From positions 2,358 to 66,357 of the forward strand of contig PHDT01000006.1 in NCBI GenBank assembly GCA_002842695.1: DNA of 64,000 nt. Reading direction: 5' to 3'. Made by a program: the position numbers and the translations under genes. This DNA is from Bacteroidetes bacterium HGW-Bacteroidetes-10 (GTDB lineage: Bacteria; Bacteroidota; Bacteroidia; Bacteroidales; UBA932). Under the pieces are notes generated by a model. It was not told the DNA's origin. It saw only the letters and a program-made list of their open reading frames with translations, and did no database searches. This document shows, in pieces, positions 22,575-26,984 of this stretch (the stretch's first letter is position 1; every line of letters starts with the position of its first letter).

Positions 22575-23282
22575 TTATTTGCCGGCAGGTTCGTGGAGAA
22601 GATCCATAAACTCAATAGTATTGCTCTCCATCTTGTAAACAATATTGTCAATTCTGGCAACTAAATAGTTATAACCGAAATATGCAAGAATTCCCACTAT
22701 AAGACCGGCAACAGTAGTTACCATTGCAGTGTAAATACCTCCTGAAAGCAGCGTGATATCAACATTACTTCCGGCCTGAGACATATTGTAGAATGCCTGT
22801 ATCATTCCAATTACAGTTCCAAGGAAACCAATCATAGGAGCTCCGCCTGCAATTGTTGCAAGCATTGGAAGTCCCTTTTCCAGTCTTGATATCTCAACAT
22901 TGCCCATATTTTCTACAGCTGTCTGAATATCGTTGAGTGGACGTCCAATACGCTCAATTCCCTTTTCAATAAGTCTGGCTATTGGAGTTTGCTGTGACTG
23001 ACAAAGGTTAATTGCAGCCTTAATTTTTCCTTCATGTATATAATCGTGGATATTTCTCATGAAATTTTCATCAATCCTGGAGGCTTGTCTTATTGCCCAC
23101 CACCTCTCACCAAAAAGGTAAAGAGTAAGAATTGACAATGCAAGAAGCGGAATCATAATCCATCCGCCTTTGAATGCCATGTCAATCAATGAAAAGGAAA
23201 GTTCCTCCTTAACGGGAACAATTGCCTGAGTTGCAGCCTCTGCGGCATCCTGAGCCATTGCTGCCAAAACTGGAAATATCAT
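22575..23282 (-). CDS. exbB: MotA/TolQ/ExbB proton channel
   Basis: 235 aa with 3 TM segments and the conserved LATIAGGAPMIGFLGTVIGMI block. Confidence 0.88.
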   Translation of the reverse strand: MIFPVLAAMAQDAAEAATQAIVPVKEELSFSLIDMAFKGGWIMIPLLALSILTLYLFGERWWAIRQASRIDENFMRNIHDYIHEGKIKAAINLCQSQQTPIARLIEKGIERIGRPLNDIQTAVENMGNVEISRLEKGLPMLATIAGGAPMIGFLGTVIGMIQAFYNMSQAGSNVDITLLSGGIYTAMVTTVAGLIVGILAYFGYNYLVARIDNIVYKMESNTIEFMDLLHEPAGK

Positions 23283-23365: not shown

Positions 23366-23373
23366 TATATTTG
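23366..23373 (+). promoter_or_regulatory. Candidate -7 box (TATATTTG) for the Tyr-leader transcript
   Basis: Exact TAnnTTTG match, 17 nt upstream of the first in-frame ATG of the leader ORF (23390). Confidence 0.45.
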
Positions 23374-23389
23374 CACAAGAGACACAGAA

Positions 23390-23470
23390 ATGATCAAAAC
23401 TACCATTAACGCCGCTTACATGTATTATTACTACCGCAGTTCAGCTTCGGTAGGCATTGGTATTGGATAG
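23390..23470 (+). CDS. Leader peptide MIKTTINAAYMYYYYRSSASVGIGIG (or the 16-aa version from ATG 23420) with a YYYY run
   Basis: Short ORF below the track cutoff. Four consecutive Tyr codons (TAT TAT TAC TAC, 23423-23434) overlap segment 1 of a four-segment attenuator that precedes the lyase gene. Confidence 0.65.
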   Translation: MIKTTINAAYMYYYYRSSASVGIGIG

Positions 23471-23498
23471 TTTTTAAAAAGCATACATTACACAAAGA

Positions 23499-23530
23499 GG
23501 GCTTACCATATTGGTAGGCCCTTTTTTTTT
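23499..23530 (+). terminator. Intrinsic terminator in the 5' leader of the lyase gene (attenuator)
   Basis: GGGCTTACCA (23499-23508), loop TAT, then TGGTAGGCCC (23512-23521) form a 10-bp stem, followed by T9 (23522-23530). It lies 32 nt upstream of the ATG at 23563, and no convergent gene needs it. Confidence 0.8.
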
Positions 23531-23562
23531 ACCACTAATTAATAACCCCCAAAAATCAAATT

Positions 23563-25023
23563 ATGAAAAATTCAAATGAGCAAAGCAGTGTGCGGTTCTT
23601 TTCAAGAAGACAAATCCCGGTGGAGATGCACAAAGTTAAAATTGTGCAGAGTATTAATCTTGCAAAACCTCAAAGGAGGCTGGATGCAATAGCGGAGGCC
23701 GGATTTAACACTTTTCTTCTTCAGACAGGCGACATATTTCTTGACATGCTTACTGACAGTGGAACAAATGCAATGAGCGATGAACAGGTTTCTAAAATGT
23801 TTGTTGCAGATGATGCATACGCAGGTTCTAAAAGTTTTCTGAAATTAAAGGAGAGTATTTTAGATGTTCTTGGAAAGGAGCTGGTACTCCCTGTCCATCA
23901 GGGAAGGGCTGCAGAGAATATCATCTCTTCTGCCTATGTTGGAATTGGCTCGCATGTGCCCATGAACTACCACTTTACAACAACACTTGCACATATTGAG
24001 AAGAACGGAGGAAAAGTTGCAGAGCTTTACACACCGGAGGCAATGAAAATATCAAGCAATCATCCCTTCAAGGGAAATATGGATATTGGCAGACTTGAAG
24101 AGTTCATAGTACGTCACGGGAAGGATAGGATACCTTTCATCAGGATGGAGGCCTCTACCAATCTCATAGGCGGGCAGCCATTCTCCATGCAGAACTTCAG
24201 AGATGTAAAAAAGGTTGCAGACAAAAATGGAATCCCGGTTGTACTAGATGCCAGTCTTATTGGAGAGAATGCATACTTCATTCTGAAAAGAGAGCCCGGT
24301 TTTGCCGGTTCTGACATGAGAAGCATTTTGAGGGAGATGTGTTCTCTTGCAGATATTGTATATTTCTCTGCGAGAAAACTGAGTTCTGCCAGGGGTGGAG
24401 CAATCTGTACAAACAGCAAAGAGCACTTTGACAAGATGAGGGATCTTGTTCCACTATTTGAGGGTTTTCTCACTTACGGAGGAATATCTGTCAGAGAGAT
24501 TGAAGCTATGGCTGTGGGGCTTAAAGAAACTACGGATGTGAATGTTGCCGGTCAGTCACCGCAATTTATAGAATACATGGTTAAAGAGCTTCAGGCTTTG
24601 TCTGTCCCGGTAATCTCTCCCGGAGGAGCTCTTGGATGTCATATTGATGCCGGAAGCTTTGCCCCTCATATTCCTCAAAGGGAATATCCTGCCGGAGCGG
24701 TAACAGCTGCTTTCTTTATTATTTCAGGTATAAGAGGAATGGAGAGAGGAACTATTAGCAGCACAAGGGACGCTGAGGGGAATGAAATTATGGCAGATAT
24801 GGAGCTGATGCGCCTTGCTTTGCCCAGGAGGCTCTTCACTCTCTCTCAGATTGAGTTTACTATTGACAGACTGCACTGGTTGTTTGAAAACAGAGACTTA
24901 ATAGGAGGGCTCAGATTTACAGAAGAGCCGCCCGTGCTGAGATTTTTTACCGGGCGGCTCGAGCCTGTCAGCGACTGGCCAAAAAGGCTGCTTGATAAAT
25001 TTCTTAAGGATATTTCAATTTAA
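23563..25023 (+). CDS. Beta-eliminating lyase family PLP enzyme, tyrosine phenol-lyase-like
   Basis: 486 aa. LTDSGTNAMSDEQ, DDAYAGS, HQGRAAEN, NYHFTTT, ENAYFI, SARK (PLP Lys), GIRGMERG and LRFFTGRL align to the TPL/tryptophanase family. The FTTT, MERG and RFFT signatures resemble TPL rather than TnaA. Confidence 0.85.
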   Translation: MKNSNEQSSVRFFSRRQIPVEMHKVKIVQSINLAKPQRRLDAIAEAGFNTFLLQTGDIFLDMLTDSGTNAMSDEQVSKMFVADDAYAGSKSFLKLKESILDVLGKELVLPVHQGRAAENIISSAYVGIGSHVPMNYHFTTTLAHIEKNGGKVAELYTPEAMKISSNHPFKGNMDIGRLEEFIVRHGKDRIPFIRMEASTNLIGGQPFSMQNFRDVKKVADKNGIPVVLDASLIGENAYFILKREPGFAGSDMRSILREMCSLADIVYFSARKLSSARGGAICTNSKEHFDKMRDLVPLFEGFLTYGGISVREIEAMAVGLKETTDVNVAGQSPQFIEYMVKELQALSVPVISPGGALGCHIDAGSFAPHIPQREYPAGAVTAAFFIISGIRGMERGTISSTRDAEGNEIMADMELMRLALPRRLFTLSQIEFTIDRLHWLFENRDLIGGLRFTEEPPVLRFFTGRLEPVSDWPKRLLDKFLKDISI

Positions 25024-26984
25024 TCCTCTTCAAAAACTTCTTCAGGCTCCCCGGTCAGGAGGGAATCGGTCTTTGCTGAATATAAGCTCTCTACAGCTTT
25101 TTTTGCGGCAGGAGAGAGGCTTACTTCTGCTCTTACGGCCATCTCCTGTTCCATACTGATTACCTCTTTGACCCTGAGCCTCTCTGCCAGTAATCTGTAG
25201 TAGTCTTCCTCTTCCTGCTTCAATTTAAAGTCAGGAGTAAACGAACGAAGTGCTCTCTTTGGTGACGGAATTATACTTGCCAGAAAAATTGATTCATTTA
25301 TGTCAAGATCAGATGGCTCCTTGTCAAAATAGAACCTGGAGGCTTCCCGGATTCCGTATATTCCGGGACCCCATTCTATGATGTTGAGGTATACCTCAAA
25401 CATGCGATCCTTGCTGCTTAGTCTGTTTGTCTCAACGAGCCACACAATGAGCATCTCCTCAAATTTTCTGGCGAGGGTTTTATGCCTGCTCAGGAATACA
25501 TTCTTAACAAGCTGCATTGAAATTGTGCTTCCGCCACGAACAAACCTGCGCTCTTTGATGTCCGTAACCAGTGCCTCTCTTATACTCTCTGGCAAGAAAC
25601 CGTTGTGGTAGAAAAATCCGCCGTCTTCTGACTGAAGAACGCACATTTTAAGATAGGGTGAAATTCTGTCCAGTGTTCGGAAGTTTGGATTTGACGGTCC
25701 CACATTGAAAGACTTTACGGGAACTCCTCTTTCATATGCGGTATACTCAAATTCAGAATTAATTCTGCGAAAATCTGTCCGCCCCGGAGAGATAATCCTG
25801 AATTTTCCCGGCCTTAACAATGAGTGGATTTTGAGACTGTCAATATTGGCCATATCAATATCTGCGAAAAATCTGTAGCTCAGGAATCCCTCAGTGGCTA
25901 TCCCCTCGAGGTTCCAGAATAACCCTTTTGGAAAGGATGCGAAGAGTTGATCTGCAGGAAAGTGCTCTTTTGTTACAGAAGCTGTAAAACGCCATGCTGA
26001 GTTTTTCTCGGCTCTGACAAAGGGAGAAAAACTGAGTTTGTTTACTGTAATAACAGATGAGGAGTCCAGCTCGAAATAATTGTTCCCGGTATTAATTCTG
26101 TATGATATATGTCCCTTGTCCAGGATTACATCTTCAGGAGACAGGTTTGTGTGGAATATTGTGAGCCCGTCTGCCAGTCCCTCTCCTGAGAAGGAGATTC
26201 CCTCTTTGTTTTCAGTTGCTTTAACATTAAATGAGAGTGTATCAAACTGAACTCTTGCGCCCCACCTGAATTCAAGAAACGGAACAGAAAATTTACTTCC
26301 ATTTTCTGAATGAATTTGTGTGGAAAGTGATCGCCCCGAGTCATCAAGTTTGCCGCTTGCCCGGAGTGTCTCCCTGAATCCGTTTTCATCTGTAATTATA
26401 GTTGCACTGTAAGTGTCTCTTTTAATTGATGATTCGGGAAGTTTTATGCTGAGGTTGTAGTCGCCGTTAATATACTGAATTTCAAAGTCTGATATTGTGG
26501 CAGTTGATGGAAGGATGTCAAGGAAAAGAGAGTAAAACCTCTCTGCCAGTCTTGAATAGCTTACTGCTGCATCTGTCCGGTTCTCAGGTTTAATATCGGA
26601 TGTGGAACCTGTAGTGGTTTTATAAAGAAACTCGAAGTTTGAAGTTGAATCTCTTTTAATGAATGAAATACGTGTGCCGGATAACTCAAGTTTTGTAATA
26701 TCGGGCCTCAGAAGCAGAAGTTTAAACGCATTCAGCCTAACAACAATTTTTGATGCTCTCATTAACTCCTCTTTCCCAAGGGGTGTTATTGTCAGAGAGT
26801 CTATCCTAACTCCGGCCAGTCCGGAAACCGATAGTTTTTTATAAGAGATATCCAGTGAAAGTTCTTTGTTGACGGACTTGATTCTGGAATTGACAACAAC
26901 CCGCATTATTGGTCCCCTTAGCAGAAACAATGTAAGCAGCAGTGCTGCAGCTGCGAGCAATGCAATTTTAATTTTTCGGTTCAT
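25020..26984 (-). CDS. Transglycosylase (GT51) domain protein with large N-terminal membrane-anchored domain
   Basis: 654 aa with an N-terminal TM. The C-terminal ~200 aa carry GT51 motifs (QSEDGGFFYHNGF, RGGSTISMQLVKN). Confidence 0.75.
   Translation of the reverse strand: MNRKIKIALLAAAALLLTLFLLRGPIMRVVVNSRIKSVNKELSLDISYKKLSVSGLAGVRIDSLTITPLGKEELMRASKIVVRLNAFKLLLLRPDITKLELSGTRISFIKRDSTSNFEFLYKTTTGSTSDIKPENRTDAAVSYSRLAERFYSLFLDILPSTATISDFEIQYINGDYNLSIKLPESSIKRDTYSATIITDENGFRETLRASGKLDDSGRSLSTQIHSENGSKFSVPFLEFRWGARVQFDTLSFNVKATENKEGISFSGEGLADGLTIFHTNLSPEDVILDKGHISYRINTGNNYFELDSSSVITVNKLSFSPFVRAEKNSAWRFTASVTKEHFPADQLFASFPKGLFWNLEGIATEGFLSYRFFADIDMANIDSLKIHSLLRPGKFRIISPGRTDFRRINSEFEYTAYERGVPVKSFNVGPSNPNFRTLDRISPYLKMCVLQSEDGGFFYHNGFLPESIREALVTDIKERRFVRGGSTISMQLVKNVFLSRHKTLARKFEEMLIVWLVETNRLSSKDRMFEVYLNIIEWGPGIYGIREASRFYFDKEPSDLDINESIFLASIIPSPKRALRSFTPDFKLKQEEEDYYRLLAERLRVKEVISMEQEMAVRAEVSLSPAAKKAVESLYSAKTDSLLTGEPEEVFEED

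Follow-up and report, generated by a model that had tools for sequence, protein, structure and literature searches.

A putative tyrosine-codon leader-peptide attenuator upstream of a tyrosine phenol-lyase-like gene in Bacteroidales

Background

The attenuators of Escherichia coli represented by trpL, pheL, hisL, thrL and leuL combine a short open reading frame (ORF) that carries a run of codons for the cognate amino acid, RNA segments 1 to 4 with mutually exclusive 1:2, 2:3 and 3:4 pairings, and an intrinsic terminator just 5' of the gene, which is read through when the cognate tRNA is uncharged. We analysed a stretch of 64,000 nucleotides from Bacteroidetes bacterium HGW-Bacteroidetes-10, a member of the Bacteroidales (GenBank assembly GCA_002842695.1, contig PHDT01000006.1, positions 2,358 to 66,357 of the forward strand; hereafter the window), and describe a leader region at positions 23366-23530 of the window, which lies upstream of a tyrosine phenol-lyase-like gene and resembles the E. 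coli attenuators in these respects, the pairings and the read-through with uncharged cognate tRNA being predicted. It differs from them in that the codon is that of tyrosine, the promoter and the translation start are of the Bacteroidetes type, and the target is one gene only, from a family whose known role is to break down aromatic amino acids.

Bacteroid-trp is the Trp-codon leader of the trp operons of Bacteroidetes. The motif (RF01692) is listed in Weinberg et al. 2010 (PMC2864571). The leader described here belongs to the same phylum and represents the same general device, but Bacteroid-trp uses Trp codons and controls a biosynthetic operon.

Tyrosine phenol-lyase (TPL) and tryptophanase are degradative enzymes and are induced by their substrates, through TyrR in the case of tpl and through TnaC in the case of tnaA. 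TnaC has one critical Trp and conserved residues at a fixed spacing from the stop codon; it acts on Rho-dependent termination, and induction occurs with excess of the amino acid. The tnaC-tnaA system of E. coli and the present locus are alike in having a short leader ORF upstream of a gene for an enzyme of the same family, but in the present leader a run of codons is the only conserved peptide feature, the position of the stop codon varies, and the terminator is intrinsic. In Citrobacter freundii and Erwinia herbicola, the protein regulator TyrR controls tpl, which tyrosine induces so that the amino acid can be broken down. Those species and the present locus would have in common that a gene of the phenol-lyase type responds to tyrosine, whereas here the switch would consist of RNA and ribosome, its predicted sign is the reverse, and the enzyme is 38% identical to E. 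herbicola TPL. TPL is also reversible, forming tyrosine from phenol, pyruvate and NH4+, or from phenol and serine by beta-replacement, and this tyrosine formation is used industrially and in engineered cells.

We found no Tyr-codon leader family in Rfam 15 or in the papers searched, and no description of attenuation of a TPL-type gene in those papers. The proposed mechanism is of a known kind; its amino-acid specificity, its target and the implied physiology are new.

Results

The elements of the leader region and the gene that it is predicted to regulate are as follows.

23366-23373, + strand: -7 promoter box TATATTTG (TAnnTTTG, Bacteroidetes-type), 16 nt 5' of the leader ATG
23390-23470, + strand: leader ORF of 26 codons, peptide MIKTTINAAYMYYYYRSSASVGIGIG; ATG at 23390, stop codon TAG at 23468-23470
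23417-23434, + strand: putative regulatory Tyr codons, TAC at 23417-23419, ATG, then TAT TAT TAC TAC at 23423-23434 (YMYYYY)
23431-23436, + strand: segment 1, CTACCG, partner of segment 2; overlaps the last Tyr codon
23448-23455, + strand: segment 2, CGGTAGGC, copy of the terminator 3' arm; its partner is segment 1 or segment 3 (sub-motifs CGGTAG at 23448-23453 and GGTAGGC at 23449-23455)
23499-23508, + strand: segment 3, GGGCTTACCA, the terminator 5' arm; partner of segment 2 in the antiterminator (GCTTACC at 23501-23507)
23512-23521, + strand: segment 4, TGGTAGGCCC, the terminator 3' arm
23499-23521, + strand: terminator hairpin of 10 bp, GGGCTTACCA-TAT-TGGTAGGCCC
23522-23530, + strand: T9 tract of the intrinsic terminator, ending 32 nt before the lyase gene
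23563-25023, + strand: the lyase gene, 486 amino acids, pyridoxal phosphate (PLP)-dependent beta-eliminating lyase

A preliminary description of this region had located the box, the ORF, the Tyr codons, the pairing segments and the terminator, and all of its coordinates hold when the + strand is read directly. The leader start is of the Bacteroidetes type: it lacks a Shine-Dalgarno sequence, and the 5' untranslated region is very short. The 26-codon version is likely the ORF actually used, because the 16 nt between the box and its ATG fit the 16-17 nt of most orthologous loci. A 16-codon ORF from 23420 was also considered and was rejected, since it has no counterpart elsewhere and both the box spacing and all orthologs favour the upstream ATG.

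The sequence YYYY occurs only once in the six frames of the window (mean after shuffling, 0.36). A combined filter, which required a TAnnTTTG box, an ATG-initiated ORF, 8-45 codons long, in which one residue occurs at least three times in a row, and a hairpin with a T-run, retained two sites in the window, namely the Tyr leader and an Asn leader before asnA (see below); in the window and about 1 Mb of ortholog loci it found no further Tyr-run leaders before other genes. A simple terminator scan missed the hairpin at 23499-23530, though this G+C-rich stem of 10 bp with its T9 appears to fall within the criteria given for the scan; folding tools detect the hairpin, the scan was not exhaustive, and we took the omission as a shortcoming of the scan. 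When Rfam was searched with the whole window at the gathering threshold, only tRNAs passed. At a permissive threshold, the best match in the region was the trpB motif (23.6 against a gathering score of 59), with Thr_leader at 20.6 against 55 and Phe_leader, on the opposite strand, at 18.3 against 55, the scores coming mostly from the terminator; Bacteroid-trp (RF01692) was absent from the matches of the region even at E values up to 10.

We then compared the region with orthologous loci, using a sample of 80 loci from a scan of species-representative genomes and 80 from a metagenome scan. The search for Tyr-run ORF/terminator pairs upstream of lyase homologs found the pair, in the same layout, at 24 other loci (protein identity 63-98%), with conserved spacing, which bears out the Tyr-codon leader peptide that had been proposed for the window. 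The 25 leader sequences including that of the window (21 of them distinct) have one common architecture, and in all 25 the order is box, Tyr-run ORF, segment 2, terminator, a spacer of 20-42 nt and the lyase ATG. Among the closest orthologs, a short Tyr-run ORF lies upstream in every case; examples of the ortholog leader peptides are MKSTNYNINSLYYYYRRLPRVGYGIGLC, MGIFKLNIGIYYYYYYRLIYK, MLNKINTDNHLDGNYYYRRLPLVSLKKE, MIINGCNYYHYYYYHGLPGVSRDW, MKFRNNLHRYYYYYFMIPMVSQNME and MTLINYKKRFYYYCCRIIVVSQDVF.

The ortholog leader ORFs have 18-29 codons and 2-7 Tyr, and their ATG mostly follows the TAnnTTTG box by 16-17 nt (range 4-26). The Tyr run is the sole peptide feature common to all 25 leaders; TAT and TAC are exchanged between loci, and the residues flanking the run vary. 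The stop codon follows the run after 2-15 codons and lies just 5' of segment 2 (locus L013), inside segment 2 (L008) or as far as about 25 nt past its start (L007). Segment 2 itself starts 14-20 nt (mode 17) past the first base of the last Tyr codon. Toeprint and footprint data place the 3' edge of a ribosome 12-13 nt beyond the A-site codon, and the start of segment 2 is just past the 3' edge of a ribosome with the last Tyr codon in its A site. The core of segment 2, GGTARG, is kept at the nucleotide level in the 21 distinct leaders, even where the stop codon falls in or just before it. Because the peptide flanks, the number of Tyr and the stop position all vary, segment 2 is conserved as nucleic acid and not as codons. 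The terminator has the consensus AAGGCTTRCC / GGYRRGCC followed by a T-run, and T4-T9 tracts stand at the same place in all orthologous leaders.

The substitution pattern was examined in a 12-member subclade with the leader peptide MGIxKLNIGIYYYY. Variable sites numbered 6, 7 and 13 at codon positions 1, 2 and 3, respectively, and over codons 2-10 the pairwise codon differences were 166 synonymous against 133 non-synonymous. This third-position variation together with the synonymous excess argues that the leader ORF is translated.

In a neighbour-joining tree, the 25 leader-bearing sequences and five sequences without the Tyr ORF formed one clade of 30, and no leaderless orthologs were found inside this clade beyond the five. 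The single clade indicates one origin of the device, which persisted as the proteins drifted apart to about 63% identity. The absence of the Tyr ORF from the five exceptions (L005:3700-4000, L010:1-246, L012:3700-4000, L085:217-516 and L087:1-228) looks like secondary loss. Four of them (L005, L010, L012 and L087) retain the promoter, a segment-2-like element and the terminator, and L085 is without the terminator too. At L010, L012 and L087 the segment-2-like element is GTTGGYAGGGCCG, and a hairpin of differing sequence stands in place of the ORF; at L005 a short hairpin and T8 directly follow the promoter. None of 24 loci has a TAnnTTTG box between the leader ATG and the lyase ATG, so that transcription of the lyase gene must pass the terminator.

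The predicted structures of the transcript were consistent with alternative pairing. The minimum free energy (MFE) of the transcript 23380-23532 was -40.7 kcal/mol (z = -4.5 against 200 shuffles), with the 1:2 hairpin and the terminator formed, and that of the terminator hairpin alone was -15.9 kcal/mol. In a gapless alignment of segments 2, 3 and 4 from the 21 sequences, the terminator helix was 98.6% paired, both bases had changed in three of its pairs, and none of 500 shuffles matched its pairing or its covariation score. The 7-bp 2:3 antiterminator helix was 95.2% paired, against 18-56% when the partner was slid by 1-3 columns. A stalled ribosome was then represented by masking the leader up to 13 nt past the A-site Tyr codon and ending the RNA before segment 4. 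With the Tyr codons masked in this way, the 2:3 helix was the MFE structure in nearly all tested loci, and at L011, L014, L018 and L025 it stayed so even with the full terminator present; with the mask at the stop codon, the terminator alone formed. The 1:2 hairpin appeared in the MFE folds of the window and of most loci, at a variable position and weakly in some, and the form of segment 1 varied by locus, often as a GCAGG...CCTG pairing. The preliminary description had proposed the alternative 1:2, 2:3 and 3:4 pairings and read-through on shortage of Tyr-tRNA. The 2:3 and 3:4 pairings are upheld by the copy of the terminator 3' arm that segment 2 provides across loci and by the computed folds (the terminator when unmasked, the 2:3 helix under the ribosome mask in nearly all tested loci), and the prediction of read-through agrees with the antiterminator being the predicted fold when a ribosome occupies the Tyr codons.

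The sequence comparisons show the elements, how well they are conserved and spaced, that their pairings exclude one another and that no second promoter is present; the direction of the switch and what it means for the cell are our inference. The leader is very probably a ribosome-mediated (leader-peptide) transcription attenuator, and we consider it likely, with somewhat less assurance, that the switch is of the starvation-ON type, with expression when tRNA-Tyr is poorly charged. Transcription would start just 3' of the TAnnTTTG box, and the 26-codon leader would be translated during RNA synthesis. With plentiful Tyr-tRNA, the ribosome would reach the stop codon and cover segment 2, the 3:4 terminator would form, and transcription would end at the T-run before the lyase gene. 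With scarce Tyr-tRNA, the ribosome would stall in the Tyr run and cover segment 1, because segment 1 shares bases with the last Tyr codon; segment 2, which lies some 17 nt further on, would remain free and pair with the emerging segment 3, so that no terminator would form and the lyase gene would be transcribed. In the absence of translation, the 1:2 hairpin and then the terminator would form.

The downstream gene encodes a PF01212 beta-eliminating lyase (E = 1.5e-49, 169 bits against a cutoff of 27), which passes the broad NCBIfam 'tryptophanase' subfamily model NF009709 (565 bits against 285). It scores below the cutoff of the TPL equivalog TIGR02618 (419.7 against 720.7 bits) and below those of the TnaA equivalogs TIGR02617 and NF053783 (335 against 826 and 385 against 750 bits). 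Its best solved relatives are TPLs (E = 1e-110), followed by tryptophanases at 1e-96 and weaker. The lyase group is about 38% identical to E. herbicola TPL and about 35% to TnaA, compared with about 45% between TPL and TnaA.

We aligned 161 members of the group, obtained from the two collection scans, to E. herbicola TPL and E. coli TnaA; the TPL column was taken from the alignment of the solved relative, and the E. coli TnaA column serves only as a guide. The common catalytic residues Tyr71, Arg100, Asn185, Asp214, Lys257 (the PLP lysine) and Arg404 are invariant in 161/161, and so are the TPL-specific Thr124, Arg381, Phe448 and Phe449. In TPL, Thr124 and Arg381 form hydrogen bonds with the hydroxyl group of the substrate and Phe448/Phe449 put strain on the phenol ring, and in tryptophanase an Asp (E. 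coli 137) and a His (463) bind indole (PMC11301627). At these indole-binding Asp/His positions the lyase group has Thr and Phe instead. All 161 members also carry R217L, K256R and H343L, at sites conserved in both TPL and TnaA, Phe at TPL position 288 (M288F, as in tryptophanase) and Ser at 216; the corresponding residues of the window lyase are L232, R271, L357, F302 and S231. Judged from these comparisons, the TPL/tryptophanase family has a third subfamily, to which the lyase belongs and whose pocket is of the phenol type. The preliminary description had called the target TPL-like, which is a fair description as far as the phenol-pocket residues go, but the lyase belongs to a separate subfamily and scores below the TPL equivalog cutoff, and the name TPL itself is not established.

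Relatives of the window lyase are encoded in more than 570 species genomes, and public annotations of the subfamily use tryptophanase and TPL interchangeably. The 161 sampled members include sequences assigned to Oxalobacter, Alistipes, Planctomycetes and Kiritimatiellae, and contigs from the human gut. Our literature search on the enzymology of this clade found nothing relevant. The lyase gene of the window is monocistronic and has opposite-strand flanks, exbB (22575-23282, - strand) with exbD on one side and a transglycosylase gene (25020-26984, - strand) on the other.

The second site retained by the combined filter has the following elements.

44440-44272, - strand: candidate leader-peptide attenuator region with a TAnnTTTG box
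44440-44354, - strand: Asn leader ORF MAHLNNNLFNNNSNNNLIRSGRLLFFNM, with 9 Asn in three NNN runs
44326-44302, - strand: hairpin, followed by T9 at 44301-44293; terminator about 20 nt before the gene
44274, - strand: probable ATG of asnA (TIGR00669 equivalog, 370 bits against 293)

The segment GCGGGAGGCUA of this leader can form an 11-bp helix with UAGCCUUCUGC, the terminator 5' arm, and the leader gave no Rfam match in the whole-window search at the gathering threshold. It is like the Tyr leader in having a box, an ORF with codon runs, a segment 2 that repeats the 3' arm of the terminator, and T9, but asnA is unambiguously a gene for a biosynthetic enzyme, for which the logic is conventional. 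The Asn leader thus suggests that the organism uses such a device at a gene that one would expect to be switched on by starvation.

A tRNA cluster, Thr(GGT)-Gly(TCC)-Tyr(GTA)-Thr(TGT), lies at 852-1187 on the minus strand and holds the only tRNA-Tyr gene of the window, whose Rfam score is unusually low (33.9 bits).

Discussion

The sign of control predicted from the leader is opposite to that expected of a tyrosine-degrading enzyme. Control of the starvation-ON type can act as stable negative feedback only where the enzyme adds to the tyrosine pool, and from this a tyrosine-forming role would follow; under the same control, a tyrosine-consuming enzyme would create a runaway positive feedback. 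With the gene off when tyrosine is plentiful, a reversible enzyme would neither waste tyrosine nor release phenol. Taken as a whole, we favour with reasonable confidence the reading of the leader as a starvation-ON attenuator that senses the charging of tRNA-Tyr, with the lyase working in the tyrosine-forming direction. The more specific proposal that the lyase of this Bacteroidales lineage supplies tyrosine from phenol when tyrosine is short follows from the regulatory logic only, and we put it forward tentatively, as a possibility that we would not bet on at even stakes.

Several observations weigh against this reading. The regulatory logic is by itself the whole argument for the tyrosine-forming role. 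The lyases were compared for depletion of Tyr, as a signature of expression under Tyr starvation, and the Tyr content was 3.07% in leader-bearing and 3.25% in leaderless members (p = 0.18), a difference that is not significant. Clustering of 80 loci revealed no neighbour conserved across the clade that encodes a transporter, a phenol-forming enzyme or an enzyme of aromatic biosynthesis, and our literature search for a natural reverse-TPL role found nothing relevant. In the enzyme, the invariant changes R217L, K256R and H343L may alter the activity, and 131 of the 161 sampled subfamily members are without such a leader. At the RNA level, segment 1 has no positional conservation and is weak, for example, in L008. 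With its 7 bp, among them G-U pairs, the antiterminator of the window falls far short of the terminator in strength, so that read-through would depend on kinetics. Covariation in the 2:3 helix was not above that of shuffles, because segment 3 hardly varies; support for the putative antiterminator comes from the conserved complementarity and from segment 2 being a copy of segment 4.

The same starvation-ON attenuator might also control an enzyme that does not supply tyrosine. The lyase could remove a tyrosine analogue that competes for tyrosyl-tRNA synthetase and mimics starvation (m-tyrosine, DOPA, or halogenated or aza-tyrosines), it could act on another phenolic amino acid, or a catabolic TPL with odd control could simply be tolerated. 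The invariant R217L, K256R and H343L, together with M288F as in tryptophanase, are in keeping with such an enzyme, and its roughly equal distance to TPL (38%) and tryptophanase (35%) implies that the substrate need not be tyrosine; the lack of the leader in most subfamily members likewise fits a general catabolic role elsewhere. We nevertheless hold this explanation to be unlikely, since every pocket residue that contacts the tyrosine hydroxyl is still present, we found nothing pointing to an analogue, and a positive feedback would be difficult to sustain, whereas 25 of the 30 clade members preserve the arrangement down to 63% identity. A different way out of the paradox would be an arrest peptide like TnaC, in which the poly-Tyr chain together with free tyrosine stalls the ribosome and thereby induces a catabolic lyase when tyrosine is abundant. 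The preliminary description had raised such tyrosine sensing as the alternative to an enzyme that supplies tyrosine. The enzyme family does include tnaA, which is so controlled in E. coli, and the RNA geometry alone is silent on why the ribosome stalls. However, conservation of the peptide is confined to the Tyr run, the number of Tyr (2-7) and the distance from the run to the stop codon (2-15 codons) vary, the terminator is intrinsic and is accompanied by a classical antiterminator instead of a Rho site, and our literature searches found no poly-Tyr arrest peptide. Runs of cognate codons are moreover the hallmark of attenuators that sense tRNA charging, and the same genome has an Asn run before asnA. 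Arrest of this type is accordingly disfavoured, and we think it improbable.

Least credible of all, in our view, is the absence of any regulation, with a chance ORF in an AT-rich spacer and a hairpin that is an ordinary terminator or the end of a small RNA. The hairpin was indeed not flagged by the simple terminator scan and nothing reached the Rfam gathering score, but the hairpin has nothing else to terminate, because the upstream gene is on the opposite strand. Nor does a promoter box follow the hairpin; YYYY is found nowhere else in the window, and the architecture recurs at 24 other loci with the synonymous-substitution pattern; on these comparative data, a chance origin is regarded as excluded. 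Two further ideas were dropped. A peptide product, such as a ribosomally synthesized and post-translationally modified peptide, was rejected on the grounds that the peptides have nothing but the Tyr run in common and that a terminator lies between the ORF and the PLP-dependent lyase gene; a link to queuosine-dependent decoding was considered because the leaders are rich in NAU/NAC codons, for which the AT-rich composition accounts equally well.

The surroundings of the leader-bearing loci offer some further observations. Leader-bearing records include OY782180.1, JAJFVD01, CAVXEU01, CAVWPG01 and the 1.6-Mb contig Ga0209639_1000001. Several of the record names of leader-bearing genomes indicate anaerobic digesters, fen, soil or biofilm, and such habitats would be expected to contain phenol. 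In a subclade of 12 loci (L004, L006, L007, L008, L009, L013, L083, L084, L086, L088, L089 and L090; for example L004:2613-3701, + strand, and L008:6309-7733, - strand), the leader and the lyase gene follow hydE immediately and share its strand. The gene for the tyrosine-consuming radical S-adenosylmethionine maturase of [FeFe] hydrogenase is hydG, and at least five of the 12 hydE-linked loci have the leader and lyase facing it. This hydE/hydG neighbourhood may be inherited synteny or may reflect a link to tyrosine demand. At a few loci the lyase gene adjoins genes for phenylacetate-CoA ligase-like, ACT-domain and ADP-forming acyl-CoA synthetase proteins, an arrangement that is not conserved. 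Such neighbours, typical of arylacetate/arylpyruvate metabolism, were noted at three loci.

L005, upstream 0-3.5 kb, minus strand: arylacetate-type neighbours
L012, upstream 0-3.5 kb, minus strand: arylacetate-type neighbours
L044:5623-6951: arylacetate-type neighbour

Conclusions

The sign of a regulatory device can serve as a functional annotation, and here it suggests that the lineage wants the enzyme when tyrosine is scarce. A single-gene target from a degradative enzyme family would be an unexpected use of textbook attenuation. The occurrence of Tyr and Asn attenuators in one window suggests that codon-run leaders may be commoner in Bacteroidales than the libraries of RNA families show, and the distinctness of the lyase subfamily matters for gut and environmental surveys in which "TPL" genes are counted as phenol producers. 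If the proposed reading is true, the lyase would be a tyrosine synthase that salvages environmental phenol and is wired as a biosynthetic gene by the first described Tyr-codon attenuator, and it would provide a second natural route to tyrosine, beside prephenate/arogenate dehydrogenase, in anaerobic phenol-rich habitats.

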